From NCBI GenBank assembly GCA_965116335.1, contig OZ220677.1:922846-986845 (forward strand): a DNA stretch of 64,000 nucleotides, given 5' to 3'. The notes beneath the pieces were generated by a model that searched no databases, was not told where the DNA came from, and saw only the letters and a list, made by a program, of their open reading frames with translations. Shown here one piece after another: positions 16,172 through 40,724 of the stretch (positions are counted from its first letter, which is position 1; each line of letters begins with the position of its first letter). The DNA is from Arenicellales bacterium. GTDB lineage: Bacteria > Pseudomonadota > Gammaproteobacteria > Arenicellales > Poriferihabitantaceae. Both the position numbers and the translations under genes were made by a program.

Positions 16172-16211
16172 GGGCGCAGAGTCGCAAAGACCGCAACAGG
16201 ACAAGTGAGGC

Positions 16212-17291: not shown

Positions 17292-17337
17292 AAAGAGCAA
17301 GCCGGAGCCTGCCCCGGCACCGCCCCGATCATCCCAA

Positions 17338-17697: not shown

Positions 17698-17756
17698 GAT
17701 AATCCGGTTTCAATTGGTTGCAGTCAGTTGCCAGTCTGATGCGTTATTGGAGATAC

Positions 17757-17784
17757 AAAAAAATGCCGGGGACGAAGCCCCGGC
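17757..17784 (-). terminator. rho-independent terminator downstream of the symporter gene
   Basis: Minus strand reads GCCGGGG-cttcgt-CCCCGGC followed by ATTTTTTTG. Lies ~40 nt after the stop at 17823. Confidence 0.75.
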
Positions 17785-17822
17785 ATATTCATGGCTGAAA
17801 ACAAGTTCAGCAAACTTCTTTA

Positions 17823-19637
17823 TCAGTGGGAAGAATCCAGTATGGTTTTGCCCGCAGGCACCCGGATTTCATCCACCATGGCCTGAGTTTCAGCATCCGG
17901 TTCCTCGGTCATCAGAGAAACCACGATCATCGCAATCAGGCTCACCGGCATACCGATAATTCCGAATCGCAGATGGTCGATACCGATCCACGGGTCCATA
18001 CCGGCAAACCGAACCATATACAGATACCAGGTTCCGGCGAGGAAACCACAGACCATACCGGCAATGGCGCCCGCCCGGTTGGCTCGCTTCCACCAGATAC
18101 CGAGAACGATCGGGAAGAACAGCCCGGAACAGGCGAAGTCGAACGCCCAGGCTACCGCTCCGAGGATGCTGGTCAGTTTCAGACTCGCTACAAAGGCACC
18201 CGCAGCACCGATCACCAGCAACAATATGCGCGCCACTAACAGGCGCTTCTTGGTTTCCGCAGCCGGATCGATGATTTTGTAGTACAAATCATGAGACAGG
18301 GCGTTGGCAATCGCCAGCAGCAAACCATCTGCTGTGGACATCGCAGCCGCCATACCGCCAGCGGCAACCAGACCGGATATAACATACGGCAGTCCGGCGA
18401 TTTCCGGTGTGGCCAGCACGACAATATCGCCGCGCATGAAGAACTCGTTGAGTTGCAATATGCCGTCTCCGTTGCCGTCGATAACCTGCAGGAAGCCAAC
18501 ACTGCTCCACTTCTGCACCCATTCCAGCGCATTCACCTCGGTGATGGCCTTGCCGATGATGCCGGTTGCCAAATCAGGGTTAAGCAACTGCAACTTGGTA
18601 AACGTGGCCAGTGCCGGAGCGGTGAAATACAGCAGGAAGATGAAGAACAGAGACCATGCGACCGACTGTCTGGCTGATTTGACGGACGGAGTCGTGAAGT
18701 AGCGCATCAGGATATGTGGCAATGACGCCGTACCGGCCATCATACACAGTACCAGCGTGACGAACTTCCAGCTATCGCCAGCGGCAGCAAAAGGAACGCT
18801 CAACGCCTTCAAACCCGCCTTCGCGCCAGCAACCGCCTCCAGAGTACCGAGGCCGTGCATCGCCTCGAGCTCGGTGATCTTCATCACTGCATCGCCGTAA
18901 ACCAGTTGCGGAATCAAGCCGAAACCCTGTTTATTGGACATCCAGAATACCGGCACCAGATAGGCGATGATCAGTACGATGTATTGCGCGACCTGGGTCC
19001 AGGTTACCGCACGCATACCGCCGAGCATCGAACACAGCAGAATACCCAGCAATCCGAACCAGACGCCAACCTCGAATGGAATCTGCAAGGCACGGGCAGC
19101 GATGGTTCCGGTAGCGTTGATCTGAGCGGTCACATAAGTGAAAGACGCGACCACCAGCACCACTACCGCACAGAACCTGGCGAGATTACCGCCATAGCGC
19201 GTACCGATGAAGTCCGGCACCGTGTAGCAGCCGAACTTACGCAGGTAAGGCGCCATCAGTGAGGCGACCAGTACATAACCACCAGTCCAGCCAACCACAA
19301 ACGCCAGATAGCCATGTCCGCCGAAGTAAATACCCCCGGCCATAGCGACGAACGAAGCACCCGACATCCAGTCTGCGGCAGTAGCCATCCCGTTGAAAAC
19401 GGTGGGCACCTGACGACCGGCGACATAGTACGCGTCGACCTGCATGGTGCGGGATAACCAGCCGATCGCGGCATAGATCAGGACGGTAAAGGCGACGAAA
19501 AGGATACCAATGGTATCCGCCGCCATGCCCATTTGCTCGAACACAGCCATAATCAGGATGAATACCAGGAAGCCCCCGGTATACAGCCCGTAGATTTTCG
19601 GCAGGTTCTGAATAAAATTGTCTGTTAAGCCTTTCAT
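17823..19637 (-). CDS. sodium:solute symporter family protein (ActP-like cation/acetate symporter group)
   Basis: ~604 aa polytopic SSF protein. Start moved to MKGLTDNF (ATG 19637), which has GGAGG 9 nt upstream and sits 5 nt after the DUF4212 stop. Classic DUF4212 + SSS pairing. Confidence 0.85.
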   Translation of the reverse strand: MKGLTDNFIQNLPKIYGLYTGGFLVFILIMAVFEQMGMAADTIGILFVAFTVLIYAAIGWLSRTMQVDAYYVAGRQVPTVFNGMATAADWMSGASFVAMAGGIYFGGHGYLAFVVGWTGGYVLVASLMAPYLRKFGCYTVPDFIGTRYGGNLARFCAVVVLVVASFTYVTAQINATGTIAARALQIPFEVGVWFGLLGILLCSMLGGMRAVTWTQVAQYIVLIIAYLVPVFWMSNKQGFGLIPQLVYGDAVMKITELEAMHGLGTLEAVAGAKAGLKALSVPFAAAGDSWKFVTLVLCMMAGTASLPHILMRYFTTPSVKSARQSVAWSLFFIFLLYFTAPALATFTKLQLLNPDLATGIIGKAITEVNALEWVQKWSSVGFLQVIDGNGDGILQLNEFFMRGDIVVLATPEIAGLPYVISGLVAAGGMAAAMSTADGLLLAIANALSHDLYYKIIDPAAETKKRLLVARILLLVIGAAGAFVASLKLTSILGAVAWAFDFACSGLFFPIVLGIWWKRANRAGAIAGMVCGFLAGTWYLYMVRFAGMDPWIGIDHLRFGIIGMPVSLIAMIVVSLMTEEPDAETQAMVDEIRVPAGKTILDSSH

Positions 19638-19641
19638 CTTG

Positions 19642-19899
19642 TTATTCCTCCGCGAAGCCGGTTTCCTGGTCAATTTTATGCTGGGACCGGGCGAACCAGA
19701 AGATCAGTATCACAAAGATAACCTCCGACCCCTGTGCGGCCATGTAGAACCCCAACGGGAAACCCATGAACGAAAACGCATTCAAGGCATTAGCAAACCA
19801 GTGTACCAAGAAAGAAAAGACAAACCATAGCGATAGAGTGATAATCATCAGACGCTTGGTGCGCGTCCAATGCTCCACTCTTTGGCTGGTATCAGTCAT
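19642..19899 (-). CDS. DUF4212 small membrane subunit of the solute symporter
   Basis: 85 aa, 2 TM, FMGFPLGFYMAAQGS motif. Directly upstream of the SSS gene. Confidence 0.8.
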   Translation of the reverse strand: MTDTSQRVEHWTRTKRLMIITLSLWFVFSFLVHWFANALNAFSFMGFPLGFYMAAQGSEVIFVILIFWFARSQHKIDQETGFAEE

Positions 19900-20052
19900 A
19901 TAACCCCCAGATCATTGTAGTTAAAATTATTGCGGTTCATACAGAACAACCAGAAACCAGCACCGGACTGAACCGTGAACCCCATATCCGCGATACTAAA
20001 TAAGACGTGGCAAAATTGCAATAGCAGAGGCAACTGCTGTGTCTGAATCAAA

Positions 20053-21582
20053 TCAGGCTGGAACCAGCTTCAGGTTCAACATTCTCAAGGTGGCCTCTAT
20101 ACCGGCGAACACCTGGTTGGCATTGATGCCGCGGGTTCTGATTTTACGCCCTCCGTCCTGCCAGGTGATGAAACATTCGACCAGCGCACTGGTCTTGCCG
20201 CCTTTCGGTATCCGTACCTGATAATCAACCAGCTCGGGGAATTCAAATCCGGTTTCGTTCAGGATGCTCGAAATAGCGATGATAAAGGCATCGAAACCGC
20301 CATTGCCGGTGCCGGTGGCTTTCAGTGTCTTGTCGAACAGCCGAACACTGATACTGACCACTGAATCCAGTCCCAGCACACTGTTAATCGAACAATTCAG
20401 CAACTCGATCACCTTCTCATCGCGTGTCTCCAGGACGTCGGCGATGATCAGGGGCAGGTCTTCCGGAGTAATACTTTCCTTGGAGTCGCCCAGTTCGACC
20501 ACGCGCTCAAGCACCTTGCTCTGATTCTCCGGCGACAGACTGATGCCCAGTGTTTCCAGGTTTTTCTGCAGAGAAGCCTTGCCACTCATCTTGCCCAATG
20601 CATAAGATCGGGTGCGGTTGAAACGGTCCGGGCTGAGACGAGTCTGATACAGGTCGCCTTTCTGATCGCCATCAGCGTGTATGCCAGCAGTCTGGGTAAA
20701 CACGTCAGTACCGATAACCGGAGCATTACCGGCCACCATTTTCCCGGAGAAATTCTCGACCATCCGGCTGATGTTATAGATTTCGTGCTCCTCGACGCGC
20801 AACTGCGCTCCCAGCTTATCCTTCAATACCAGACAGATTTCCGCCAGAGAAGCGTTGCCCGCCCGTTCTCCCAGGCAATTGACCGTACAATGCACCGAAG
20901 CCGCGCCCGCCCGCACAGCCGCCATGCAGTTCGCCGTTCCGAGACCATAATCGTTATGTGGATGAAAGTCGAACCTGCAATCGGGGAAGCGGTTAATCAT
21001 ATCGGAAAAACTGTCATAGACCTCACCCGGAGACATCACGCCGAGCGTATCAGGCAACATGAAATGCTCAATCGGCAAGGATTGCAGCTGCTTCATCATA
21101 TCAAAAACATACTGCGGGCTGTCCACATAGCCATTCGACCAGTCCTCGAGGTAAAGGTTGACCATCAACCCCTGGTCAGAGGCATACTCGATGGTACGGG
21201 ATATGCCCTCCAGATGCTCCGACAAAGTCTTCCCCAGCTGCTCCCTGCAATGCTTTTCACTGCCTTTGGTGAGCAGGTTGATGACTTTACCGCCAACCCC
21301 TGAAATCCAGTCCACACTGCGCTTGTGATCGACGAACCCAAGCACCTCGACCTGCTCCAGATAGCCTTTCTGACGCGCCCATTGGTTGATGTTGCACACC
21401 GCCTCACGCTCGCCGGAGGATATACCGGCGGAGGCGACTTCGATGCGGTCAATCTTGAGCGAGTCAAGCAGTGCGCGGGCAATGCTTTCTTTCTCAGAGC
21501 GGGAGAATGAGACACCTTGCGTCTGCTCGCCATCGCGCAGGGTTACATCGACAATTTTGACAGCGGGGTTGGATGTTTGCAT
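20053..21582 (-). CDS. cimA: (R)-citramalate synthase (Leptospira-type; LeuA/HCS family with C-terminal regulatory domain)
   Basis: IVDVTLRDGEQTQGVSFSRSEK...IDRIEVASAGISSGE, VEVLGFVD...VINLLTKGS, HPHNDYGLG. Close resemblance over the full length to my recollection of Leptospira CimA. Confidence 0.8.
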   Translation of the reverse strand: MQTSNPAVKIVDVTLRDGEQTQGVSFSRSEKESIARALLDSLKIDRIEVASAGISSGEREAVCNINQWARQKGYLEQVEVLGFVDHKRSVDWISGVGGKVINLLTKGSEKHCREQLGKTLSEHLEGISRTIEYASDQGLMVNLYLEDWSNGYVDSPQYVFDMMKQLQSLPIEHFMLPDTLGVMSPGEVYDSFSDMINRFPDCRFDFHPHNDYGLGTANCMAAVRAGAASVHCTVNCLGERAGNASLAEICLVLKDKLGAQLRVEEHEIYNISRMVENFSGKMVAGNAPVIGTDVFTQTAGIHADGDQKGDLYQTRLSPDRFNRTRSYALGKMSGKASLQKNLETLGISLSPENQSKVLERVVELGDSKESITPEDLPLIIADVLETRDEKVIELLNCSINSVLGLDSVVSISVRLFDKTLKATGTGNGGFDAFIIAISSILNETGFEFPELVDYQVRIPKGGKTSALVECFITWQDGGRKIRTRGINANQVFAGIEATLRMLNLKLVPA

Positions 21583-21733
21583 GGTTAGAGTAAGTAATCG
21601 CGGAAAAACCGGGTATTATCAACCGTATGCGTTGGCATGTCTATCACTAAAAACGGGCATACAACCGGCAATCAGTTTATGGCAACAGATTAAACCCGTT
21701 ATGCCATTAAAAATCTCCCGGTGGGTGGTTTCG

Positions 21734-21762
21734 GGTTGCACAACTCGCAACCTTTGTATAAT
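21734..21762 (+). promoter_or_regulatory. higBA promoter/operator: inverted repeat GGTTGC-N7-GCAACC overlapping the -35 region, perfect TATAAT 7 nt before the ATG (near-leaderless)
   Basis: Read directly: gGGTTGCacaactcGCAACCtttgTATAATatcaataATG. Confidence 0.6.
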
Positions 21763-21769
21763 ATCAATA

Positions 21770-22048
21770 ATGATTAAAAACTTTAAACACAAAGGTCTGA
21801 AGAAGTTTTTTGAAAGTGGCAGTAATGCAGGCATTCAGGCGTCGCACGGTACCAAAATTCGGGATCGACTTACTTTTCTGCATACGGCTGTCTGCATTGA
21901 AGATATGAACCTCCCCGGTTATCGATTGCATGAATTGAAGGGGAAGCTGGCTGGTCACTGGGCAATCGATATCAGTGGTAACTGGAGAATATCATTCAAG
22001 TTTGAACGAGGTGACGCTTACGACGTCAATTACGAGGACTATCACTGA
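21770..22048 (+). CDS. higB: HigB-type toxin (RelE/ParE superfamily, plasmid maintenance system killer family)
   Basis: MIKNFKHKGLKKFFESGS...GNWRISFKFERGDAYDVNYEDYH, 92 aa. The 220-aa track ORF is an artefactual N-terminal extension antisense to cimA. Confidence 0.85.
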   Translation: MIKNFKHKGLKKFFESGSNAGIQASHGTKIRDRLTFLHTAVCIEDMNLPGYRLHELKGKLAGHWAIDISGNWRISFKFERGDAYDVNYEDYH

Positions 22049-22392
22049 TGACTATTCAACAATTCAACCCTCCGCATCCGGGTGGCTTGATCAAGCGGAC
22101 CTACATTGAGCCATTTCCAGATGTTACTGCGGCAGGTATTGCGCGCGAACTCGGTGTTTCCAAAAGTACTTTTAGTCGTTTACTCTCCGGGAAGTCTGAC
22201 ATTTCTCCAGAGATGGCGGTGAGGCTGTCGACGGTATTAGGTCGATCTGCTGAAAGCTGGCTGGCGCTGCAAGACAATCATGATTTGTGGAAAACCCGGC
22301 AGTCAGTGAATACCGATGGGCTGCAAAGGATTCAGTTCAAACAACCGGAAAGAGCAAGGCCGCGCCACGAGGAGGAGTCCGCCAGCGTGTGA
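22048..22392 (+). CDS. higA: HigA-type antitoxin (XRE-family HTH)
   Basis: HPGGLIKRTYIEPF...TAAGIARELGVSKSTFSRLLSGKSDISPEMAVRLS. TGATG overlap with higB. Confidence 0.85.
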   Translation: MTIQQFNPPHPGGLIKRTYIEPFPDVTAAGIARELGVSKSTFSRLLSGKSDISPEMAVRLSTVLGRSAESWLALQDNHDLWKTRQSVNTDGLQRIQFKQPERARPRHEEESASV

Positions 22393-22399
22393 AATGAAG

Positions 22400-25300
22400 T
22401 CAGTCCGTGTTGTCAACTTCGAGCACGATCCTGAGGTCTTCAATATGGGTGTCAAAAAAGTAAACGTTGACCGGCTGGTCGGCGAGTGTCAGTTCCAATT
22501 CACTGCCATTCAGGGTCAGGAACCTGTCCTTCAACTCGTCCTTCGAACCGTTGGCATGCCTGAACATCGCCGCATGATTCGGGCATAGAATGAGGTAGTT
22601 CTGGTAGTGGTGTCTCTCCAGATCCGGGAGAAACTCAACGGCCTCGAAAAAGTAGCTTCCATCAGCCAACCTGAAGGGGAGGCGACCCTTGCACACCTGA
22701 CAGATGGTCACGCCGGCGTTGGTATACATATCCCGCAGATAGGGATTGGTCTTTTCTCTTTTGATCGGGTCGCGATTGACAGACACGGACCGCTCACGCT
22801 TCTCGCTCGTGCGTTCAGGCGCTTCCCCGGCTTCCTTCCGAACCTTCTCCGCTCTTCGGTCACGGTTTCCGGGTGCACGGGTGGGGAGGTCGACAGGTTC
22901 TGCGTTCTCCGCAAGGATTCTCTGTCGGGTCTCTGGAGACAGCGCGGCAAATTGTCTTCCGTGGTCGAGCGCAGCCTCGTCTGGAAAGCCGAGTTCGGCG
23001 GCGATCTCCTGCTTTCTGCGGTGCTGTTCGATACGGTTTTTGGTTTCGGTGCCGAAGCGGATGGCGGTGAGCCAGGCCCATCCGGGATCGAACGGGAATC
23101 CATCCGGCAGGAGGTCTCTCGAAGCTTCAGCGGGGCGAACGAATACATCGTCCCCCTGAGGAACCCAAGCAGTGTTCCGCAACTGGTGAGCGAGCTGAGA
23201 ATCGGCGGAACGAGGGGCGTTCGACTGGTTGTATTGAAATATGGCCTTCCAGATGCTCTCGTCTTGTTGATTCCAGACAAGACGGGAAAGAGTCTCCTGT
23301 CGTTGCGCTGATAGTAACGGGTTGGAAAAGGTATTCCAGACAAGACGGGAAAGAGCTATGGTCGGTATTTCGAACAAAGATTCGAACCCGGGAATTACGA
23401 AGTCACGGTTTATTCCAGTATGCGTGAAGGAAGCTCCCGGAGCACCATGCAAGTACTCTTTTGCTGGATTGTTGGCGCAGGTGATAACCGCAATAATTTT
23501 GAGGCAGTCGGCTACACCGCACATTCGGGCGAATTGGATAAGTTTCTCCCGCAGGTCGAAGGTCTGGTAGCTGTCGGACAAGGCCGCGCGGTCCGATTCG
23601 GAGCCGAGGGATCGGTAGTAGACTTCCAATCCGGTTTCGAGATAAGGGGAGTCGAGGTACAGGTCGTTGGGCTTGGACCAGAGTCTGTCGGCTCGCTGCA
23701 ATATGAAATAGTCCTTGAAGAGGGAGCTTACGTTCCTGTCCTTCCTGTCCTTTTCGAAGAGCGCAATGAAACGTCTCAGGTCGGATTCATGGGTCTCCCA
23801 TGGCGGGACGTTGGCGGGGTCGGCGTATCGTGTTTTGAGAATGGACTCAACCTGCTCGAACTCACCAATCTCCCGGACGCCGATGCCCCCCAGGAAACTC
23901 CTGGCACCAGTCTGTTCCGACTTGGTTCCACCGCCCGTGTAAGTGTCTTCCGCAACGCGGGGATGAATGGGATCTTCACGAATCTCCGGGGTCGGGAAAT
24001 AGCATTCGCCTCCTGTCCTGTATTCGCCGTCCGAAAGTCTGACGATACAGATTTCATCGAACTGATCGATGTCGTCGCTTCCCAGTTCCCGATAAAAGAG
24101 GGCATACAATGCCCGGTGCCACTCTGCCGGTTTCCGGCGTATCCAGTCAAGAAACGGCTCATCGGGACCCTGCTCCTCCCCGAAACAGCCCCGGGGTTTA
24201 TTGGAGAACCGCTTGTCCAGTGCTTCCACGAACTGTTCGACTCCCCAAGGCTTGATGTCGAGGCCATTCAGGAATCGGTCAACCTCAGTGCTTCGTCGTG
24301 TCGCGGCTACCGCCCAGTCGCGCGGGACATCGTCGCTATCAATCAGAAAACGGATATCCTCGTGATCCAGCAAGACCTTCAGTCCGGCCTCCGCCTGCAG
24401 CAATTGATTGGCTGGAGCATGGCCGCCGGTGTGTGTCGGCGTAAGAGGTCGCTCGTTCATTTCGTCAACAATGGCGTCACGTATCGGCGTATACGGAGGT
24501 GGGATTGTGTCCTCGCTATTCGGCAGCACAGCCAGAAACTCCCGGTCAAGCAGGCCGAGGTCGCGGATTGATGACAGCGATTCGGCTGCAAGTCTGGCGA
24601 GTTGTGCGAAGAGTGGTGCGTTTGCTGGCGTGTCCTTGATACTGGAGCGGCTGAGTTCCGGGACGAAGGGCGCATGGAGATGGAATCGCAGGTTTGAAGT
24701 CTCCTTTGCGGCCGTGAAGTAGACCGCAACATGTCCGCGTTCGGCCGGAACAATCCGAAACTGCCTGGAGAGGGGCGAGTGCGTGTCCAACTGAACGTCC
24801 CCGGACAGCTGTTTGAGTTCGAAGGCGATGGCAATGTGCTGACATTCCATCTCATCAACCGGTTCGGTGAAGCGAAGGAAGTGGGAACTTTCGGTCGGCC
24901 TGCCGTCGATCTCCCGAAGAATCTCAATGTGGTGATCCGAATGCAGATTCTGGAGCAGGAGTCCTTCCTGGCCACCGTCTATCCACCACTGGATCTCTTT
25001 AATATTGGACAGGAACAACAGGGTGTTGTCAGAAATATCCTCCAGCCCGTCCCGCACTTCCAAGAGAGCCTGAGCTTGTGGCTTCCTCCCGGAGTCGAAC
25101 GGAAACTCGAACCGCGTGTGACCGTTCAGGGCCGGGTTCGGTGGGATTTCCGACGGGAGTACCATTTCGGAAATCTTGAAGGCGAAGCTCGGCGACCAGA
25201 TGCGAGGTGAAGCCGTGTAGAGGAAGGCCGCCTTGAAGCCGATTCCGAAGCGACCGATTGTATCACTATCATCTTTTGTGCTGAATCCTATACCTGTAAT

Positions 25301-25543
25301 GGCTCTAACGTCTTTATAGTCGAACGGTCTCCCGTTATGTTCAAACGTCAAGCAAGTGTTAAAGAGACGAAAGTTTACTTCCGTTGCTTCTGCATCTTCA
25401 GCATTTTGTAGTAGTTCGTAAATGAAATGTGCTTTATCCGGATAAAAGTCATCGAATAAATCCAAGTTGATGTCGCCTTCATTGACCGCAAGGCCATCCA
25501 AGAATTTTTTTCGTTTTTCTCTTAGGGTCTCAAAAAAATTCAC
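22400..25543 (-). CDS. sacsin/MORC-like GHKL ATPase with C-terminal HNH-like (CxxC...HH..N..CPNH) nuclease module, 1047 aa
   Basis: N-terminal ELLQNAEDA (25391..25417), EHNGRPF, GRFGIGFKAAF form a Bergerat fold. C-terminal CQVCKGRLPF...ERHHYQNYLILCPNHAAMF (22574..22702). GTG start overlaps the stop of the upstream SNF2 gene (GTGA). Confidence 0.75.
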   Translation of the reverse strand: MNFFETLREKRKKFLDGLAVNEGDINLDLFDDFYPDKAHFIYELLQNAEDAEATEVNFRLFNTCLTFEHNGRPFDYKDVRAITGIGFSTKDDSDTIGRFGIGFKAAFLYTASPRIWSPSFAFKISEMVLPSEIPPNPALNGHTRFEFPFDSGRKPQAQALLEVRDGLEDISDNTLLFLSNIKEIQWWIDGGQEGLLLQNLHSDHHIEILREIDGRPTESSHFLRFTEPVDEMECQHIAIAFELKQLSGDVQLDTHSPLSRQFRIVPAERGHVAVYFTAAKETSNLRFHLHAPFVPELSRSSIKDTPANAPLFAQLARLAAESLSSIRDLGLLDREFLAVLPNSEDTIPPPYTPIRDAIVDEMNERPLTPTHTGGHAPANQLLQAEAGLKVLLDHEDIRFLIDSDDVPRDWAVAATRRSTEVDRFLNGLDIKPWGVEQFVEALDKRFSNKPRGCFGEEQGPDEPFLDWIRRKPAEWHRALYALFYRELGSDDIDQFDEICIVRLSDGEYRTGGECYFPTPEIREDPIHPRVAEDTYTGGGTKSEQTGARSFLGGIGVREIGEFEQVESILKTRYADPANVPPWETHESDLRRFIALFEKDRKDRNVSSLFKDYFILQRADRLWSKPNDLYLDSPYLETGLEVYYRSLGSESDRAALSDSYQTFDLREKLIQFARMCGVADCLKIIAVITCANNPAKEYLHGAPGASFTHTGINRDFVIPGFESLFEIPTIALSRLVWNTFSNPLLSAQRQETLSRLVWNQQDESIWKAIFQYNQSNAPRSADSQLAHQLRNTAWVPQGDDVFVRPAEASRDLLPDGFPFDPGWAWLTAIRFGTETKNRIEQHRRKQEIAAELGFPDEAALDHGRQFAALSPETRQRILAENAEPVDLPTRAPGNRDRRAEKVRKEAGEAPERTSEKRERSVSVNRDPIKREKTNPYLRDMYTNAGVTICQVCKGRLPFRLADGSYFFEAVEFLPDLERHHYQNYLILCPNHAAMFRHANGSKDELKDRFLTLNGSELELTLADQPVNVYFFDTHIEDLRIVLEVDNTD
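22422..22442. repeat. left copy of a perfect 21-nt direct repeat AGCACGATCCTGAGGTCTTCA
   Basis: Identical 21-mer at 29749..29769, checked base by base. This copy lies within the last ~14 codons of the GHKL-HNH gene. Confidence 0.9.
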
Positions 25544-28500
25544 TGAACTGAATCCGTTGTAATTTTCAAAGTTCCTTGAACAACTAGGGTAGCGTGGATG
25601 TCGGCACTTTCCGCCAGCCTTTCCAACTCGGCAATCCGGCTCTCATAGTCATAGTTCGCACGCGCCAATTCGCTTTCCTTCATCCGACGAATCTTGTCGT
25701 TTGTCGCGGCTCCGACCTGGCCCTCCAACAACTTGCATCGGGCCCCGTGGCTGGTTCTCAAGCTTTGCCGCCGGTGGTGAACGAGTTCCCGGTTCTCCGC
25801 CACATGATTTGCGCGTGCTGCACGCCATTTGCCGTGGTGCCGCTTATCAAGGCGTTCAATCGCGACTTCGTCAAGCAATGTGCCGTCGGGCGTGTCCACT
25901 GCAACTTCCAACAGGGACATCACCGCGCTGTCCAATTCGGGGTTCTCGGTGACGGACACCAGCGTGTCATCGGATCGAATACCGACATTGCGCCACTGGT
26001 AGAGGGCGAACGGATATTCACCCGGTGGGACAGTTTCGCTTGATGCGATCAGACTGACCTGCACCGCTTGGGAGCGTTTCAGGTGCCGCGCCGCCTGCCT
26101 GAGCAGTGGATGCAGAACGTTGAGATAGACGGCCTTCGGCTCGGCGGCAGCGGCTTCCTGGTCGAAGGTGACCGGCAGCAACGGGTCCGCGCCTCTGAGC
26201 CACTTTTCCCATTGCCGGGCGACCGGATCGGTGGATCGCGGCTGGCCCCGGAAGTCAGCGAGTAGCCTGGCCCGGATATTCTGGCCGAGGCGCAGAGTCT
26301 TAAGAGGTTTGTCGCCGAGCAGAAAATCGCCGTCAGTCTCCGACACGCCCGACAGATAAATGGTAACGCATCGTTGCAGTGCCTCGGCGGACAACCAGAA
26401 GCTCTCAGCCTCCGCGATCTCCTTGCGCCACGACTGGTTTGGAACCGTCAGGCCGAACAGTTCGGCTTGCTTTTCCTCTAACGCTGTCTCTTCCTGAACC
26501 TGGCGGATCTTGTTGTCACCTAGTTGCTGCAGGCGCTCGGCACGCTGTTCCGCCGTCAGCATGAAGCTGTCGGCAATATTGTGAATCTCCCGGGTGATCT
26601 CGCCGAGAATTTCTTCGCTACCGCCGACCGCGTGATGGAATACACCGATGCGCATCAGACAGCGTTCGTAGATGTCCGCGTCGACCGTGCCGGGCGTCAC
26701 CAGGTTGACGATGGCGACGCTCTCGCTCTGCTGGCCGTAGCGATCGATACGCCCGATACGTTGTTCGATACGCATGGGGTTCCACGGCAGATCGTAGTTA
26801 ATTAACAGGTCACAGAACTGGAAGTCAAGCCCTTCGCCGCCGACCTCCGAGGAAAGCAAAACATCCAGCGCCTCCGGGTCGTCCTTCGGCGAAGCGAATC
26901 GGCGGCGCAACTCGGCACGCTGGTCGTCCGGAACGCCGCCGTGCACGAGACCGTAGCGCAAGCCCGCATCCGCGACGTGTTTCTCGATATAGGCGAGTGT
27001 GTGCCGAAAAGTGCTGAAGGCAAGCGCCTTGTTGTTGTCCATCCGACCCTTGTCCCGCAGTACGCTGATGAATACCTGCACCTTGGGGTCGAAGGAATCG
27101 AGATCGTCGGCATGCTCCAGGAGCATCTCGACATCGGTTCGTATCTCGGCAAGAAAATCAGCATCGATGGGAGTCTCGCCATCGGTCCCGTCTGTCGTTT
27201 CAAGACTGTCGAGCTTTCCGACAAGCATATCGCGCAATAGTGGCGCCAGTCCGTAAAGGCAGCTCGCCGCCTGACGACGGATCGTGGTCATCATGAACTT
27301 GACGTTCTGCTCGCCATGGGCACGCGCCAGAATGCGGCTTACCACATTGAGGAGGTCATCATGCAGTCGGCGCTGGTCGGGCGTGAACTCGACCGTCAGC
27401 GTTTCTGGCCGACGGGTCGTGAACTCCCCGATATCCCGGCGGCGAGTCCGGTTAATCATCGGACTGAAGGTATAGAGTTCCTCCAGAGACCGGATGATGC
27501 GAATACGGCTGGCGTCGTCGATATGCTCCTCCGCCAGACGATCATAGATGTCCTGAAACGCTGGCGATTCTCGCAGGAAAAGGAGACCCCACTCGGTCTG
27601 TGCGGCTTGCCCCAAGCATTTGCGGGCTTCGGCCTGCCAGCGATCTCCTTCCGCACGGCAATGGCCCACGGCTGCGTTAATGAACCCGTTGGGCGCAGCC
27701 ATCTGCTCGAAGCTCGGGCGGTCGATGACGAGGTCCGGCCGCAGTACGTTCAGCAAGGTAAAGAGGTCTTGACTGCCAAGTTGCACCGGGGTGGCGGTGA
27801 GAAAGACGGCGGCCTGGGCGTTGTCGCAGAAATAGCGCACCGCTTGGTGAAGGTAGGTATCCGGGTTGCGAATATGGTGCGCCTCGTCGACGATCACGAG
27901 ATCAAATCTGGGCGGCGGGTCAAGTGCGAGCAGTCCCTGGCTAGCTCGCGCCCCCCTTACCTTCTTGCCAAAAAGCAGATCCGAATCAAACAGGGAGAAC
28001 GGTAGTATAGCCTTGGCATAGCGGTCGGGCCATTCACCCTCCAAGTCCATTTCCCGCAGACAGTGGCGTAGCATTCGACCGTCGAGAGTCTCGAAATGCT
28101 CGTCAAAACGCTTCATCTCCACGAACCACTTGCGCTCGGTAACCAGCGCCTTGGGGCAGATGATCAGCACCGAGGAAATGTCCGTCCGTGCCCGCAACTC
28201 TTTGATGATCAGCCCAGCCTCAATCGTCTTGCCCACGCCCACCTCGTCGGCAATCAGCAGACGAGGTCGGTCGGCCCGGATCAATCTCAAAACGGGGCGA
28301 TACTGATAAGGCACGAAGTGAATGCGCCCGGACCGCAGCGAATACAGGTTAGCGGTGGACGGCGAGAGCAGATGCAGGCTGGTCAGATGGGCGCGTACTT
28401 CGCCAGCACTGAGTAGAGAAGGTTCGTCTGAGGACTCAAGGGGCCGCAGCTGGCTCTCGTAGTAGGTCGCCTGACGATTGTCCTGGAAAACCTGGTAGCG

Positions 28501-29160
28501 TGCCTCGGCGGCACTGTCCATGACTCCAATGATCGGCACCACAATGCCGGGGTCGGAACGCAACGCCACGAGGTTACCGACCTTGAATATCGTCGTTGCT
28601 GCCTGTGAAGAGACAGCAGAAATTTCGCGGTCGCTCGGTGCCGTAATCGAATCAGCGGTATTGTCAGGATGGAGCGAGGAAGTCTGGGGGGCGTCGGACG
28701 GCACCGTCATGTCGGAAAGAGCATCTCTCTTAAACGCTTCGACCGTCGCGACGGAGGCAGGCGTGGCGCCAAGCATATCCAGAACACGAGCAAGTGTGTC
28801 GACATCCCGGTAAAGGTCTTCAGCCCGGACTGGCGACACCGACAGGTGCGCCCATTGATTGCGAACGGCTTGCAGCTCCCTGACCAAAGTGCGTCCCTCG
28901 CGCGGCAGATTGAGCACCTGCGAGAGTTCGTACCAATTCTGGTCCAGGATTCGCAACAGGGCAGCAAAATCTAACTGTTCCAGCTTGGTGAGCCCACGTT
29001 CCTCCACGGTACGCTGCTGTTGGAAGCTCAGACGGTTCGCGACATACGTTTTCCACCAGCCCTCGCCAAGAGTGGACAGGTGAGTCGCAAGAAAAGCGGC
29101 AAGCTCGACAGTTGCGATGCGAATCAGTTCATGCATGAAGTGAAGAGCCGTTGACAACAC
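25540..29160 (-). CDS. SNF2-family helicase with N-terminal HEPN (Swt1-like, RNQWAH) domain, 1206 aa
   Basis: RNQWAH at aa 100-105 (28846..28863). DEVGVGKT (motif I), VIVDEAHHIRN (II), LLSSEVGGEGLDFQ (V), QRIGRIDRYGQ (VI). ~300-aa C-terminal extension. GTG start at 29160; alternative ATG at 29136. Confidence 0.8.
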   Translation of the reverse strand: MLSTALHFMHELIRIATVELAAFLATHLSTLGEGWWKTYVANRLSFQQQRTVEERGLTKLEQLDFAALLRILDQNWYELSQVLNLPREGRTLVRELQAVRNQWAHLSVSPVRAEDLYRDVDTLARVLDMLGATPASVATVEAFKRDALSDMTVPSDAPQTSSLHPDNTADSITAPSDREISAVSSQAATTIFKVGNLVALRSDPGIVVPIIGVMDSAAEARYQVFQDNRQATYYESQLRPLESSDEPSLLSAGEVRAHLTSLHLLSPSTANLYSLRSGRIHFVPYQYRPVLRLIRADRPRLLIADEVGVGKTIEAGLIIKELRARTDISSVLIICPKALVTERKWFVEMKRFDEHFETLDGRMLRHCLREMDLEGEWPDRYAKAILPFSLFDSDLLFGKKVRGARASQGLLALDPPPRFDLVIVDEAHHIRNPDTYLHQAVRYFCDNAQAAVFLTATPVQLGSQDLFTLLNVLRPDLVIDRPSFEQMAAPNGFINAAVGHCRAEGDRWQAEARKCLGQAAQTEWGLLFLRESPAFQDIYDRLAEEHIDDASRIRIIRSLEELYTFSPMINRTRRRDIGEFTTRRPETLTVEFTPDQRRLHDDLLNVVSRILARAHGEQNVKFMMTTIRRQAASCLYGLAPLLRDMLVGKLDSLETTDGTDGETPIDADFLAEIRTDVEMLLEHADDLDSFDPKVQVFISVLRDKGRMDNNKALAFSTFRHTLAYIEKHVADAGLRYGLVHGGVPDDQRAELRRRFASPKDDPEALDVLLSSEVGGEGLDFQFCDLLINYDLPWNPMRIEQRIGRIDRYGQQSESVAIVNLVTPGTVDADIYERCLMRIGVFHHAVGGSEEILGEITREIHNIADSFMLTAEQRAERLQQLGDNKIRQVQEETALEEKQAELFGLTVPNQSWRKEIAEAESFWLSAEALQRCVTIYLSGVSETDGDFLLGDKPLKTLRLGQNIRARLLADFRGQPRSTDPVARQWEKWLRGADPLLPVTFDQEAAAAEPKAVYLNVLHPLLRQAARHLKRSQAVQVSLIASSETVPPGEYPFALYQWRNVGIRSDDTLVSVTENPELDSAVMSLLEVAVDTPDGTLLDEVAIERLDKRHHGKWRAARANHVAENRELVHHRRQSLRTSHGARCKLLEGQVGAATNDKIRRMKESELARANYDYESRIAELERLAESADIHATLVVQGTLKITTDSVQ

Positions 29161-29206
29161 GTGACGATGTCTGAAATCGTTCTGGTGTAGAAAGTTTCAT
29201 GACATC

Positions 29207-29235
29207 CTTATAGACGATGAGTGCGTATACTTCAA
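29207..29235 (-). promoter_or_regulatory. candidate sigma70 promoter of the SNF2/GHKL operon (TTGAAG-N17-TATAAG) with a GTATAC palindrome in the spacer
   Basis: Minus strand reads ccTTGAAGtatacgcactcatcgtcTATAAGg, ~45 nt upstream of the start codon. Confidence 0.45.
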
Positions 29236-29313
29236 GGTCGGGGCGATATGCCACGTATGTTAAAAGCTGGTTTCGGAAACGGAACCCGGCGTATACATTA
29301 GCCGAATCAGTAG

Positions 29314-29364
29314 ATGAACAAATACAAGTATTATGCGCGATGGTCGGATCGGGCAACCGACCCG
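29314..29364 (+). pseudogene. 5' stump (~17 codons) of an RHH/CopG-like regulator gene, paralog of 44081..44389
   Basis: ATGAACAAATACAAGTATTATGCGCGATGGTCGGATCGGGCAACCGACCCG aligns with the first ~51 nt of the intact gene. The upstream GTATACATTAGCCGAATCAGTAG is also shared. Homology stops where the small-gene promoter begins. Confidence 0.7.
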
Positions 29365-29373
29365 GAATCCGGG

Positions 29374-29402
29374 TTGACCCGGCGGCGCAATCCAGCCAGA
29401 AT
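29374..29402 (+). promoter_or_regulatory. sigma70-like promoter TTGACC-N17-CAGAAT of the small TM/coiled-coil gene
   Basis: The same TTGACCCGGCGGCGCAA..CAGAATAG block is repeated upstream of the paralog at 40725..40753 (minus). Confidence 0.6.
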
Positions 29403-29406
29403 AGGG

Positions 29407-29437
29407 ACACCAGAAAAGAACAGACAGGCAACGAACC
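29407..29437 (+). promoter_or_regulatory. conserved A-rich 5' leader ACACCAGAAAAGAACAGACAGGCAACGAACC (copy 1 of 3)
   Basis: Near-identical sequence abuts the ATG of three genes (29438, 40689, 40318). No canonical GGAGG. Confidence 0.6.
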
Positions 29438-29734
29438 ATGACACCAGAACTATACGCAATTATCGGAGTAGGCCTGGCATTGGCCGGAGTACTTATCCCG
29501 GCCAGCAATCGCCAGAGCCGGGATATTGCCGGACTACGGGAACAAATGAACCAGGACATTACCGGACTACGGCAAGAGATCAACCAGGACATTTCCGGAC
29601 TACGGCAGGAAATCAGCCAGCAGGGGCAACAAATCAACCAGGTTGCCCGGCAGGTGGGGCACTTGTCCGGCTTGCTGGAAGGCTTGCGAGGCCGTCCAAT
29701 CGTGACAGAGCAACCGGAAGAAATCCGGGCTTAA
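29438..29734 (+). CDS. small N-terminal-TM coiled-coil protein with 11-residue repeats (98 aa), unknown function
   Basis: LYAIIGVGLALAGVLIP TM, then DI(A/T/S)GLR(E/Q)xxNQ x3, then C-terminal VGHLSGLLEGLRGRPIVTEQPEEIRA shared with the paralog at 40375..40689. Confidence 0.65.
   Translation: MTPELYAIIGVGLALAGVLIPASNRQSRDIAGLREQMNQDITGLRQEINQDISGLRQEISQQGQQINQVARQVGHLSGLLEGLRGRPIVTEQPEEIRA
29522..29620 (+). repeat. in-frame tandem repeat, 3 x 33 nt (GAYATTNCCGGACTACGGSARGARATSARCCAG)
   Basis: Read directly. Encodes DIxGLRxxxNQ hendecads. Confidence 0.85.
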
Positions 29735-29748
29735 GCGACCGGCTGACC

Positions 29749-29769
29749 AGCACGATCCTGAGGTCTTCA
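29749..29769. repeat. right copy of the perfect 21-nt direct repeat AGCACGATCCTGAGGTCTTCA
   Basis: Identical to 22422..22442. Lies 12 nt downstream of the glpD stop, in the convergent intergenic gap. Confidence 0.9.
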
Positions 29770-29780
29770 TTCCCACCTGT

Positions 29781-31400
29781 TCAATTGTCGCCCCTGAAAT
29801 ACTCCTTGAATTTTTCCGGTCCCTGTTCGCCGAACAGACGGTCGCATAACTCCGGCATGCCGGGCATGGTCATTAACTCCTCGCGCCTGTAGAGCAGCGC
29901 CAGCCGAGAGCGTCGGCGCAACAGGTCGGACAACGTGACGACCATTTCATAATCCCGCAAATGATCAATTTCACAAAGACGCAGTCCGGTTCCGGCAATA
30001 GCCGGAGCAGCCAGGGCTGGATTAGCCTCGACCGCATCGAGTATGACGCTGGCTCCGTGGCCGTAACGCCTCCACAGGCGTTCAGCAAGGGGCTCGCCGG
30101 TGTCAGCAGCCCGGTCATCTGTGATACCGGCCTGCGCGGCCTGCGCCAGAAACGCCGCTCGCGCCACCCTGTCTGGTTCACCGTACCAGCGTGGCGGCTT
30201 GCGTGCCAGTGTGATCCCCAGCCTGGAGACCTGTTGGCAGATTTCTTCGCCGATGTTGATGCAGTCGGTCAGCTTGCCCCCGAAGATGCTGATTTGCCGT
30301 CTCGGACGGTTTATCTCCACTACGTGCTTGCGCGAGAGCTGGAGGACATCCATGTCGGTATCGGCGCCTGTAGCAACCACCAGTGGCCGGACTCCGCATC
30401 GCTCGGCGATAATGTCTGATCTCATCAGCGGACGCGGCAGATTCAGTCGGGCATTGATATTGGACAGTATAAAATCCCGGTCCTGATCGGTGACCGCGGT
30501 ATCGTGCGTATCCACGCGGGTATCGGTGGTTCCGATGCAGGTGCGGTTGGCCATTGGGATGGCAAAGAACAAGCGACCATCATCGGCGAAAAAAGTCAGC
30601 ACCTTGTCGCCCTCTCCGATGCGGGGGACGATCAGGTGAACGCCCTTTGACAGGATATGCTGATGCTTCGCCTGGATACCGGCAGTTGCGTTCAATGTAT
30701 CGACACAGGCTCCGGTAGCGTTGATCAGCGCCTTGCTGCGAATCTCGAAATTTTGACCGGAAACGCCATCCTTCGCCAGCGCTCGCCACTGCCTGCCCTC
30801 ATCCCGCAATTCCACTGCTTCCACGTAATTAGCGGCCATACCCCCCTGCTCAAGCGCACAACGGATGAACCCGAAAACAAAACGCGCATCGTTATCAAAC
30901 AGGTAAGCGTCTGAATACTCCAGTCCGCCGATACTGTGGCGGGTATCAATGACTGGCTCCACCGCGCCAATGGTGGCGGCACGCAAATAGCGAGGTGAGC
31001 GGGTATATCCCTGCCCGATCAACCAGTACAACCAGGCTCCGGCCCACAACACAGAAGGGTGATGACGAAAGCCGCGGGAAACCGTGGTCAGGAAGCGAAT
31101 TTCCCGGACAGCGCTGGGAAACTGCCGCATCAGGTCATTGCGCGACTTGCACAACTCCGTCACGAGGCCGAGCTCGCAGCTTTCCATGTACTTGATGCCA
31201 CCCCAGATCAGATTGGATGAATGCTGGCTGGTAAGTCCGGCGAAGTCTCTGCCATCAATCAGGCCAACCTTTACGCCTCGAGCCGCCAGTGACGCGGCGC
31301 ACACGGCGCCATTGATCCCCCCGCCAACGATCAGGACATCCAGAAAGTTGCGCGACAGCGCATCCAGATTTTGTTCACGCAGTGACACTATCCTTAACAA
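29781..31400 (-). CDS. glpD: FAD-dependent glycerol-3-phosphate dehydrogenase
   Basis: LDVLIVGGGINGAVCAASLAARG and HSSNLIWGGIKY motifs. The 597-aa track ORF overlaps the DUF2160 gene, so an internal TTG (31400) or GTG (31388) start is likelier. Start uncertain. Confidence 0.8.
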   Translation of the reverse strand: MLRIVSLREQNLDALSRNFLDVLIVGGGINGAVCAASLAARGVKVGLIDGRDFAGLTSQHSSNLIWGGIKYMESCELGLVTELCKSRNDLMRQFPSAVREIRFLTTVSRGFRHHPSVLWAGAWLYWLIGQGYTRSPRYLRAATIGAVEPVIDTRHSIGGLEYSDAYLFDNDARFVFGFIRCALEQGGMAANYVEAVELRDEGRQWRALAKDGVSGQNFEIRSKALINATGACVDTLNATAGIQAKHQHILSKGVHLIVPRIGEGDKVLTFFADDGRLFFAIPMANRTCIGTTDTRVDTHDTAVTDQDRDFILSNINARLNLPRPLMRSDIIAERCGVRPLVVATGADTDMDVLQLSRKHVVEINRPRRQISIFGGKLTDCINIGEEICQQVSRLGITLARKPPRWYGEPDRVARAAFLAQAAQAGITDDRAADTGEPLAERLWRRYGHGASVILDAVEANPALAAPAIAGTGLRLCEIDHLRDYEMVVTLSDLLRRRSRLALLYRREELMTMPGMPELCDRLFGEQGPEKFKEYFRGDN

Positions 31401-31425
31401 GTCGAATCTTGTGACTGTCAGCCAG

Positions 31426-31719
31426 TCATACCCACCTGAATACGAACAGGAACCAGACCACGGAAATGCCCAGCGGAATCCACAGCGGCGTACCGACCAG
31501 CCCCAGCCACAGCAAGTGAATAAACCCGGCGCCAAGCCATGAAATGAACAAACGGTCGCCACGGGTGGTATCAATCCGCAATATTCCGCGCCGGGGATTG
31601 CCGCCGGGGCTGAATGCCTCCCAGACCCCCATGACGGCTATGGATAGCGCCAGCGCCAGGAAAAACGCGCCGGTAGGCCAGGTCCACGCCATCCAGGTCA
31701 GGTCGAATACGTCGTTCAT
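31426..31719 (-). CDS. DUF2160 small membrane protein
   Basis: 97 aa, 3 TM. This family accompanies ABC-type glycerol/polyol uptake loci. Confidence 0.7.
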   Translation of the reverse strand: MNDVFDLTWMAWTWPTGAFFLALALSIAVMGVWEAFSPGGNPRRGILRIDTTRGDRLFISWLGAGFIHLLWLGLVGTPLWIPLGISVVWFLFVFRWV

Positions 31720-31739
31720 CTGTTCGCTCCCGGGCTCCC

Positions 31740-32546
31740 CTAGACTCGACCCAGCGCGAAGCCGCGAGCAATATAATTACGCACGAAGTAAATCACGAAT
31801 CCACCCGGAACGATGGTCAGGGTTCCGGCGGCAGCCAGCAGTCCCAGCTCATAACCGGATGTACTGGCGGTGCGCGTCATGGTCGCCGCAATCGGCTTGG
31901 CTTCCACCGCAGTCAGCGTCTTGGCGAGCAGCAATTCCACCCATGAGTACATGAAACAGAAAAACATCGCTACGCCGATACCCGCCGCGATAGTCGGGAT
32001 GAATATACGAATAAAAAAGCGCCAGAATGAATATCCGTCCAGCCAGGCGGTTTCATCCAGTTCTTTGGGCACTGCGGACATAAAGCCCTCCAGTATCCAG
32101 ACGGCCAGCGGGATGTTGAACAGGCAATGCGCCAATGCTACGCCGATATGGGTATCGAACAGGTCAATGGCGGAGTAGAGTTGATAGAATGGGAGCGCGA
32201 ATACCGCAGGCGGCGCCATTCGGTTAGTCAACAGCCAGAAAAACAGGTGCTTGTCACCGAGGAAGCGATAGCGGGAAAATGCGTAGGCTGCCGGCAGTGC
32301 CACGCCGACCGAGATCAGGGTGTTCATCACGACATAGCTGATGGAGTTGAGATAACCCGTATACCAGGTGGGATCGGTGAATATCTTGCGATAATTGTCC
32401 AGCGTAAACTCTCTCGGCCAGAGGGAGAACACACCCAGAATCTCATTGGTGGTCTTGAACGACATACTGACCAGCCAATAGATGGGTAACATCAAAAAAA
32501 CGATGTAGAGTGTCGTGACAAGGGCTTTGCTGGTACGGTTTTGCAT
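31740..32546 (-). CDS. carbohydrate ABC transporter permease
   Basis: 268 aa, MalG-type fold with the EAA-like region ETAWLDGYSFWRFFIRIFIP. Confidence 0.85.
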   Translation of the reverse strand: MQNRTSKALVTTLYIVFLMLPIYWLVSMSFKTTNEILGVFSLWPREFTLDNYRKIFTDPTWYTGYLNSISYVVMNTLISVGVALPAAYAFSRYRFLGDKHLFFWLLTNRMAPPAVFALPFYQLYSAIDLFDTHIGVALAHCLFNIPLAVWILEGFMSAVPKELDETAWLDGYSFWRFFIRIFIPTIAAGIGVAMFFCFMYSWVELLLAKTLTAVEAKPIAATMTRTASTSGYELGLLAAAGTLTIVPGGFVIYFVRNYIARGFALGRV

Positions 32547-32549
32547 GGT

Positions 32550-33413
32550 TTAGCGCTCCTCGTCCCGCATCATCAGCGTGTAGAATACCCAGCATACCAG
32601 CAATACCACCAGGAAATAGATCAGTGACATGGCTGCTGCCGGACCGAGATCGAACTGACCGAGCGCAATCTTGACCAGATCAATGGACAGGAATGTAGTG
32701 GTATTGCCGGGGCCGCCGCCGGTCAGCACGAACGGCTCGGTGTAGATCATGAAGCTGTCCATAAAGCGCAACAATATGGCGATGGTCAGCACCCGTTTCA
32801 GCTTGGGTAACTGGATGAAACGCAAAACCGCCCAGCCACTGGCGCCGTCAATACGCGCCGCCTGATAGTAGGCATCCGGGATAGAACACAGTCCGGCATA
32901 GGCCAACAATGCTACCAGAGAAGTCCAGTGCCAGACATCCATGACCACGGTGGTGACCCATGCCGATACCGGCTGTTGGGTGAAGTTGTAGTCTATACCC
33001 AGGCTATTGATGGTTTTACCCAGCAAACCAATGTCCGGCAGAGCGAAAATATTCCACATGGCGCCCACTACATTCCACGGGATCAGAAGCGGCAACGCCA
33101 TGAGTACAAGGCAGACCGAGACCCAGACTCCCTTGCGCGGCATACAAAGAGCCACGGCGACTCCCAGCGGCACCTCGATCAGCAGGATGGTAAAGGTGAA
33201 TGCCAGTTGTCGCATCAGCGAAGCATGGAAGCGTTCAGAGGTCAGCACCTCCTGAAACCAGCCCACGCCATGCCAGAAAAACAGGTTATTGCCAAAGGTT
33301 TCCTGGACTGAATAATTGACCACAGTCATCAACGGGATCAGGGCGTTGAACGCTACCAGCACCACCACCGGCAACACCAGCCACCAGGCTTTGCGGTTAG
33401 CGAGCCCGTTCAT
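32550..33413 (-). CDS. carbohydrate ABC transporter permease
   Basis: 287 aa, MalF-type, with AARIDGASGWAVLRFIQLP. Confidence 0.85.
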   Translation of the reverse strand: MNGLANRKAWWLVLPVVVLVAFNALIPLMTVVNYSVQETFGNNLFFWHGVGWFQEVLTSERFHASLMRQLAFTFTILLIEVPLGVAVALCMPRKGVWVSVCLVLMALPLLIPWNVVGAMWNIFALPDIGLLGKTINSLGIDYNFTQQPVSAWVTTVVMDVWHWTSLVALLAYAGLCSIPDAYYQAARIDGASGWAVLRFIQLPKLKRVLTIAILLRFMDSFMIYTEPFVLTGGGPGNTTTFLSIDLVKIALGQFDLGPAAAMSLIYFLVVLLVCWVFYTLMMRDEER

Positions 33414-35565: not shown

Positions 35566-35579
35566 GCGCCAGAGCCTGC

Positions 35580-39893: not shown

Positions 39894-39944
39894 TTGATAT
39901 TCTGTCCGGCTTTTCAGCCTGCCACTCGCTGGACGGGTAGAATG

Positions 39945-40016: not shown

Positions 40017-40021
40017 CGCTA

Positions 40022-40721: not shown

Positions 40722-40724
40722 TCT

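Follow-up and report, generated by a model that had tools for sequence, protein, structure and literature searches.

Does a perfect 21-bp direct repeat around a set of accessory genes mark the place where an integration machine inserted them? The question is raised by a stretch of 64,000 nucleotides from an Arenicellales bacterium (GenBank assembly GCA_965116335.1, contig OZ220677.1, positions 922,846 to 986,845 of the forward strand), which was analyzed as a whole and is called the window here. The 21-mer AGCACGATCCTGAGGTCTTCA occurs at 22422-22442 and at 29749-29769, both times on the plus strand and with a start-to-start distance of 7,327 bp. The pair encloses a gene for a sacsin-like GHKL ATPase and a gene for a HEPN domain fused to an SNF2 helicase, and the right copy lies beside a glpD-like gene. 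The original prediction had read the pair as an att-like or target-duplication scar. A recombination footprint was indeed found, but the geometry of attL/attR or of a target duplication was not, since the left flank is the end of the GHKL gene itself and the limits of the gene module lie elsewhere. We consider it probable that the two 21-mers are homologous, each derived from its own copy of one gene, and that no integration machine made or used them as a site. The right 21-mer is most likely the last scrap of an earlier GHKL copy at the same hotspot. Our verdict is a recombination scar of ordinary cause in a variable hotspot for defence and toxin-antitoxin genes.

The repeat in the window

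Both copies were found as first described: they are perfect over 21 bp, have the same orientation, and are flanked on either side by unrelated sequences. AGCACGATCCTGAGGTCTTCA is present exactly twice in the window, with no further match on either strand at up to three mismatches; the many dispersed copies that would speak for a repeat family were thus not found. The earlier expectation that chance recurrence is very unlikely was confirmed. Two or more matches to the 21-mer were obtained in none of 100 shuffles, and by our own estimate about 5e-4 exact 21-mer pairs are expected in 64 kb. Two shorter matches near the copies, a 12-nt inverted match (22405-22416 against 29150-29161) and the 9-nt match GACCGGCTG (29737 against 22469), were at chance level and were discarded.

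The left copy is native coding sequence

The left copy encodes the residues EDLRIVL, followed outside the repeat by EVDNTD and the stop codon of the 1047-aa GHKL open reading frame (ORF), as the original prediction had stated. This ending is conserved. All but about 6 of the 70 homologue C-termini listed, from proteins of roughly 60-81% identity in several bacterial classes, read ...YFTDTHI[EA]DLR[IV]V[IL]EVDxxD. Therefore, the 22 nt bordering this copy on the left belong to the conserved end of the gene itself and not to host backbone. A GHKL gene with 88.5% nucleotide identity, which stands in another context (locus L092), carries the identical 21-mer at this place, and the GHKL gene of locus L084 holds the 18-mer.

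The same two genes, HEPN-SNF2 and GHKL, are found together in four other contexts (L084, L085, L086 and L092). By nucleotide homology to these loci, the module extends from 22391-22394 to 29139-29240, and hence its limits do not fall at the 21-mers. Three of the four contexts (L084, L085 and L086) were searched for a second copy of the GHKL tail, and no such copy of 12 nt or longer was found in them. The alignments with L084 and L086 both end at 29240, yet these loci continue upstream with each other and with L085. There, the operon extends into a small gene (95 aa in L084 and L086), of which the window retains about 80 nt at 29161-29240. On the tail side, the module of the window is cut 7 nt past the GHKL stop and abuts higA. 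A longer native 3' flank of the GHKL gene is common to L084, L092 and a GHKL remnant in L005, a locus of a different species that is described below.

The right copy varies in length between strains

The right copy is positioned 11 nt from the stop codon of the glpD-like gene (29781-29783). It is non-coding and lies between two convergent stops, that of a 98-aa ORF on the plus strand (29734) and that of the glpD-like gene on the minus strand. Relatives of the locus were collected by a search with the glpD protein, which led to metagenome-assembled genomes (MAGs) of Candidatus Poriferihabitaceae/Arenicellales from sponges. The 90% cluster of this protein has seven members, and the loci L087-L091 and L001 were fetched. 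A metagenome scan for ACGATCCTGAGGTCTTCAWT yielded three loci. One of them, L082, was a useful empty site, and the other two (L081 and L083) were unrelated chance matches. The closest strain on both flanks is L088, with 99.1% identity in leuA and 98.7% in glpD.

In close relatives without the cassette, the relic lies in the spacer between leuA and glpD. Its right edge is constant, and its left edge differs from strain to strain, leaving 21, 18, 12-15 or 0 nt. In the empty site L082 the region upstream of leuA is followed by 16 nt, the 18-mer, 11 nt and the glpD stop; in window orientation it reads ...GGGGCATAC GCTACGTATATTTATA ACGATCCTGAGGTCTTCA TTTCCATCTGT TCA, the last being the stop of glpD. 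Relative to this site, the extra DNA of the window spans 21663-29751. The loci L001, L090 and L091 carry an NYN-domain gene, then ...TATATTTATA, the 18-mer and TTCCCACCTGT. In L087 the full 21-mer is present between a small transmembrane (TM)/coiled-coil gene with its 14-nt spacer and glpD, and a different gene lies further to the left. Since its contig breaks off 1.2 kb from glpD, L087 does not show whether the cassette is present. L088 has a remnant of the higB promoter, the last 24 nt of higB and then CTGAGGTCTTCA, with 12-15 nt of the relic left. Its higB 3' remnant is 25/26 identical to window positions 22018-22043 and is joined to CTGAGGTCTTCA at an ATC microhomology. We had taken a 32-nt stretch in L088 (28/32 matches) for a longer relic of the GHKL tail. 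This candidate was rejected when short-word BLAST showed that 26 of its bases are the 3' end of higB (25/26). Finally, L089 has no relic, and 7 nt of the right flank are gone as well.

The empty-site test proposed with the original prediction was thus only partly successful. A single copy (18/21 nt) beside glpD was seen in L082, L001, L090 and L091, while the predicted arrangement of left flank, 21-mer and right flank was not found in the relatives. The cassette was not seen at the hotspot in any of the other clade loci fetched, among which L087 gives no information on this point. The glpD-side junction, ...GGTCTTCA followed by TTYCCAYCTGT and TCA, is the same in every relic-bearing strain, which argues for one ancestral breakpoint on the glpD side and independent erosion on the other. 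From comparison with L005 and L007 (...CATCATTCCCC...), the terminal TCA may be a microhomology with the original glpD flank.

A second remnant in the same order

A second remnant was found next to the stump of the small gene. The stretch 29239-29276, CGGGGCGATATGCCACGTATGTTAAAAGCTGGTTTCGG, resembles the junction of the relatives on the leuA side, with the pattern CGGGGC.ATA..GCC.CGTAT.TTAAAAGC.GGTTTCGG. It matches L088 and L001 at 33 of 37 positions with one gap. The local alignment score of 27 compares with a null of 11.4 +/- 1.2 and was reached by none of 300 shuffles. In L088, L001 and L005, the matching junction directly follows the conserved upstream region of leuA and runs into the higBA promoter. 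The window has its own left junction at 21654-21755. This variant reads AACCGGCAATCAG... and has two small insertions relative to L088 and L005. The stub shares only a 9-nt exact match with it and is closer to the type of L088, L001 and L005. From this we argue that the intact block of the window came from another lineage.

Order and orientation of the two remnants, the stub and the right 21-mer, match those of the corresponding segments in the intact allele. The right copy combines what is seen in a pseudogene remnant: identity to a gene family, a non-coding context, variable truncation and a collinear second remnant.

Between the stub and the right 21-mer (29277-29748), no further remnants of higBA or GHKL were found. 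This filler has a paralogue at 40379-40759 with 71% nucleotide and 65% amino acid identity, and pieces of it occur at 44339-44412 and 40313-40352. The arrangement of small gene, 14 nt and 21-mer recurs in L087. Two details of the filler are recorded here as side observations. Its leader (...CCGGGTTGACCCGGCGGCGCAA...AGAACAGACAGGCAACGAACCATGAC) is a genome-specific repeated element that recurs upstream of several small coiled-coil genes (29292-29443, 40313-40352, 44339-44412 and L087). Within the 98-aa gene, a 33-nt unit occurs three times in tandem (29521-29620).

Proposed history of the locus

From these footprints the locus may be read as two alleles in a row. The intact allele (21654-29240) would comprise the backbone junction, higBA, GHKL, HEPN-SNF2 and the stump of the small gene. 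The decayed allele (29239-29780) would follow in the same order, with the junction/promoter stub, the repeat element that displaced its middle, the 21-nt 3' end of GHKL, 11 nt and then glpD.

We infer the following order of events and manner of joining. An ancestor of the clade would have carried higBA-GHKL-SNF2 beside glpD. One deletion, common to all strains, would then have begun at the Glu codon of EDLRIVL and ended 11 nt beyond the stop of glpD, probably joined at the TCA microhomology, and would have killed the cassette. The remaining tail would have been nibbled from the other side by insertions and deletions, separately in each lineage. Later, the strain of the window would have gained an intact higBA-GHKL-SNF2 block from another lineage to the left of this ghost, with crossing over between homologous sequences on the leuA side and illegitimate joining at 29240. 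Re-acquisition is favoured because the stub is L088-like, because the intact block was unseen in the other clade loci fetched, and because the GHKL allele of the window is a singleton (its 90% cluster consists of one member on one contig). Such a history agrees with general experience, as variable defence hotspots and homology-facilitated illegitimate recombination leave gene remnants and partial duplications between core genes.

Several points weigh against this history. None of the strains found has more than 21 nt of the GHKL-derived scrap, and the case for its origin depends on this identity together with the context. A longer tail remnant beside glpD that would be beyond doubt was not recovered from any strain. 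That a relic supposed to be old agrees at 21/21 positions with an allele that came in recently calls for some luck. Less luck is needed given that L092 and L084 (18 nt) carry the stretch unchanged and the L005 remnant nearly so (20/21). Both B' haplotypes occur with both left-junction types, and this mixing means that recombination between strains blurs the order of events. In addition, the same layout would result from tandem duplication of the hotspot and decay of the second copy, and an isolated 21-nt copy could also stem from insertion of templated filler at a repair junction. Re-acquisition, tandem duplication and templated filler all describe scars, not sites.

Alternative origins of the repeat

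Tandem duplication is the alternative that survives best, although we regard it as unlikely. Here, the layout with two 21-mers would be ancestral, the glpD-proximal copy would have decayed, and the cassette-free strains would have lost the intact copy. Tandem duplications are frequent in bacteria, and the two collinear repeat pairs about 7.3-7.6 kb apart (stub, 21654/29239; 21-mer, 22422/29749) are what this scenario predicts. A local duplicate should not, however, be closer to L088, L001 and L005 than to the window's own junction, as the stub is. Since no intact copy was seen in the other fetched clade loci, though all share the right junction, many independent losses would be needed. Nor does the GHKL allele of the window have a close relative in the database.

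Considerably less probable is that a single end-joining event, with the GHKL gene close by as template, inserted the right 21-mer at a repair junction and that no second gene copy was ever involved. An isolated 21-nt copy with unrelated flanks on both sides would fit such templated filler, and other junctions of the hotspot are of the microhomology type (TATATT, ATC and TCA). Against it, the copy is present with an identical glpD-side edge in strains that have no GHKL gene at the locus, so the template gene would be needed in the common ancestor anyway. The collinear stub at 29239-29276 is left unexplained as well.

The attL/attR reading is already largely refuted, and we rate it as very improbable. 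In this scheme, the 7.3-kb cassette entered as a circle, and a recombinase acting in trans used a 21-bp core shared with a site beside glpD. Perfect direct repeats do enclose accessory DNA, and cassette-free relatives do carry one copy (18/21 nt) at the place beside glpD. But the predicted left host arm turned out to be the conserved C-terminus and stop of a cassette gene, and in four other contexts the module has its limits at 22393 and 29240; three of them were searched and lack a flanking repeat. Also, the length of the supposed core varies by strain (21, 18 or 12-15 nt), and in the closest strain, L088, the deletion junction falls inside the 21-mer, at a 3-nt microhomology. The absence of an integrase from the cassette had been pointed out before and extends further: Pfam detected no tyrosine or serine recombinase domain in the gene-like ORFs of at least 150 aa in the whole 64 kb (overlapping shadow ORFs left out). 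No tRNA is present in the window, and in viral contigs neither a relative of the GHKL protein nor the 18-mer was found.

Short repeats in the same orientation around an insert are also how a target-site duplication is expected to look, but this reading is negligible, as are a dispersed repetitive extragenic palindrome (REP)-like or regulatory motif and plain chance: no terminal inverted repeats adjoin the copies on the inside (at 22443... and ...29748), the sole transposase candidate in the 64 kb, a weak rve-like DDE ORF (40850-42106), is 11 kb off, and the repeat length varies between strains; a REP-like element should not be limited to two copies in 64 kb and one in each 21-kb locus of the relatives, nor have one copy inside a coding region; no Rfam family, terminator, promoter or stable fold was found at either copy, the fold being no more stable than that of shuffles; and chance is excluded by the shuffles. 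Target-site duplications usually measure 2-15 bp, and 21 bp is well beyond this range. REP-like repeats have many copies, are typically palindromic and lie in intergenic regions.

At most, the repeat would allow the cassette to be deleted on rare occasions by homologous recombination over its 21 bp. It is conceivable, though improbable in our view, that the ghosts, i.e., the 21-mer by glpD and the 38-nt stub, act as landing pads for recombinase-independent loop-out and re-entry of the cassette by short homology. If true, a defence module that is costly to keep could be turned on and off by strains in a sponge and exchanged between them with no dedicated integrase. On our favoured reading, a scar of re-acquisition, current understanding is not overturned. 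The main value of the locus is then cautionary, as a defence module re-acquired beside the wreck of its predecessor would have produced an att-like 21-bp repeat.

The leuA-glpD hotspot and its genes

The features of the hotspot are collected in Table 1. In this clade of sponge-associated Arenicellales (Candidatus Poriferihabitaceae), the gap between leuA and glpD is a hotspot for the gain, truncation and loss of small modules with defence or toxin-antitoxin genes.

Table 1. Features of the leuA-glpD hotspot in the window
Feature	Position	Strand	Evidence
leuA (2-isopropylmalate synthase), left core boundary of the hotspot	20053..21582	-	Pfam HMGL-like and LeuA_dimer
Backbone junction, first copy, with higBA promoter/operator; left end of the intact allele	21654..21755	+	Comparison with L088 and L005
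higB	21770..22048	+	Pfam HigB-like_toxin
higA	22048..22392	+	Pfam HTH_3
Sacsin-like GHKL ATPase gene, 1047 aa, N-terminal half TmtA-like	22400..25543	-	Pfam SACS and HATPase_c_3
Left 21-mer, native coding (codons EDLRIVL), near the GHKL 3' end	22422..22442	-	Homologue C-termini
Swt1-like HEPN fused to SNF2 helicase, 1206 aa	25540..29160	-	Pfam HEPN_Swt1, SNF2-rel_dom and Helicase_C
Stump of the small gene that precedes SNF2 in other contexts	29161..29240	-	Alignments with L084 and L086
Second, diverged leuA-side junction with start of higBA promoter; left end of the putative decayed allele	29239..29276	+	Alignment to L088 and L001
Unrelated filler: repeated element with 98-aa TM/coiled-coil gene (29438-29734), then 14-nt spacer	29277..29748	+	Paralogue at 40379-40759
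Right 21-mer, non-coding, most likely a scrap of the GHKL 3' end	29749..29769	-	Spacers of relatives
glpD-like gene (FAD-dependent glycerol-3-phosphate dehydrogenase), right core boundary	29781..31388	-	Pfam DAO and DAO_C

The right boundary gene encodes a 535-aa protein (cluster P0121), whose gene in L088 has glpK, an ABC transporter and DeoR as syntenic neighbours. HigA and the 98-aa protein gave no result in exact look-ups. In L002, L003, L004, L082, L088 and L089, leuA lies directly next to glpD. The original prediction was right in calling the enclosed DNA accessory, but it counted higBA to the backbone. This part did not hold, as higBA is missing from L001, L082, L089, L090, L091 and L002-L004, is present in L005 and L007, and is reduced to remnants in L088. 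L007 has only higBA at the hotspot. In the different species L005 (82% nucleotide identity in glpD), higBA is followed by a GHKL tail remnant of at least 59 nt with a different breakpoint. This remnant takes in native 3' flank, the GHKL stop, a 21-mer with one mismatch (20/21) and 9 additional nucleotides, and then breaks into a truncated DUF4160/DUF2442-like pair, identified by eye. The NYN gene of L001, L090 and L091 is flanked by a TATATT microhomology. Beyond it, on the leuA side, L001 holds a ghost of an L005-like spacer together with the last ~14 nt of glpD (L001 12520-12620), which is another partial duplication left by cassette exchange.

The flanks of the hotspot are mosaic. Identity to L001 jumps exactly at the hotspot, from about 92% on the leuA side (15000-21660) to about 98% on the glpD side (29752-36000), and identity to L088 is 97-99% on both sides. 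This points to homologous recombination between strains with breakpoints at the hotspot. In these sponge symbionts, eight strain-level states of the leuA-glpD gap trace gain, truncation and loss base by base.

HEPN-SNF2 overlaps the start of GHKL, and thus the two genes form an operon. Judged by its PADLOC matches, this operon looks like a putative defence pair with the architecture of neither Tiamat nor DISARM. Fusions of a Swt1-like HEPN domain to a SWI2/SNF2 ATPase were catalogued by Anantharaman et al. 2013 (PMC3710099). With PADLOC, residues 32-409 of the 1047 of the GHKL protein matched positions 70-455 of the 1486 of a TmtA profile (2e-51), and a second TmtA match covered residues 29-635. 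Its best match in the PDB was sacsin SRR. At least 120 GHKL homologues were listed at 49-81% amino acid identity, of 2,473 matches, in varied contexts next to transposases. The few homologues with a named source come from MAGs of Rhodobacteraceae, Rhodospirillaceae and Gammaproteobacteria. The contexts of the module that were fetched are metagenome contigs, one of them from the sponge Ircinia variabilis. The locus thereby points to a widespread, uncharacterised pair of HEPN-SNF2 and sacsin-like GHKL genes in sponge microbiomes.

Two observations concern the GHKL gene itself. The original prediction had named it a GHKL-HNH gene. The HNH assignment was not confirmed: Pfam finds no such domain in the C-terminal 646 aa at E-values up to 1, while an HNH-like Cys/His motif (CQVC...ERHHYQNYLILCPNH; CxxC...HH..N..CPNH) is visible by eye at residues ~948-1000 (window 22400-22700). 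The gene also contains a perfect 23-nt direct repeat (23270-23292 and 23333-23355, 63 nt apart), an in-frame partial duplication (LSRLVWN...LSRLVWN) that amounts to a 16-aa insertion compared with homologue P0003.

Elsewhere in the window, a second strain-specific island (39891-44584) has been inserted where the 3' ends of glpK and cbiA converge and is absent from L088, L089, L001 and L091. It contains the paralogue of the 98-aa gene (40393-40659), the rve-like DDE ORF, repeat-rich ORFs at 42542-44056 with a peptidoglycan-binding domain, and a 22-nt direct repeat, GGATTCCCGGCTGGCCGGGTTG, at 39945 and 42197. In addition, a Type III restriction-modification pair was seen (Res helicase, 3442-6414; N6/N4 methylase, 6396-9092). 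A solitary N6/N4 DNA methylase (13313-14278) is present in L088, and L089 and L091 have a MerR-family gene instead.

Comparison with known systems

The SNF2 protein of the window matches DrmD of DISARM (1e-108). DISARM consists of a DrmD-type SNF2 protein with DrmA, DrmB, DrmC and usually a methyltransferase. In contrast, no DrmA, DrmB or DrmC neighbours are present in the window or in L084-L086, and no methyltransferase stands alongside. Similarly, the N-terminal half of the GHKL protein matches the TmtA profiles of Tiamat. Tiamat is a single gene, whereas the pair forms an operon of two genes that a 95-aa gene often precedes, and the GHKL protein covers no more than about one quarter to one half of the length of the TmtA profiles.

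With attL/attR the locus shares perfect repeats in the same orientation around accessory DNA and a single copy in cassette-free relatives. It differs in that no recombinase was found, the repeat is off the module ends, and the left arm belongs to the coding sequence of the element. Among strains, the core has no constant length, and other copies of the module that were searched are without the repeat.

The closest likeness is to cassette turnover in hotspots. A fixed core pair, leuA and glpD, holds higBA, NYN, DUF4160/DUF2442 or HEPN-SNF2 and GHKL depending on the strain. The junctions lie at microhomologies of 3-7 nt, and the present occupant is accompanied by truncated pieces of its predecessors and of flanking genes. 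The mechanism is read here from footprints. Unlike in usual hotspot turnover, the leftover appears to come from the same gene family as the occupant, and because the two share this family, the result is a perfect 21-bp repeat that mimics an att site.

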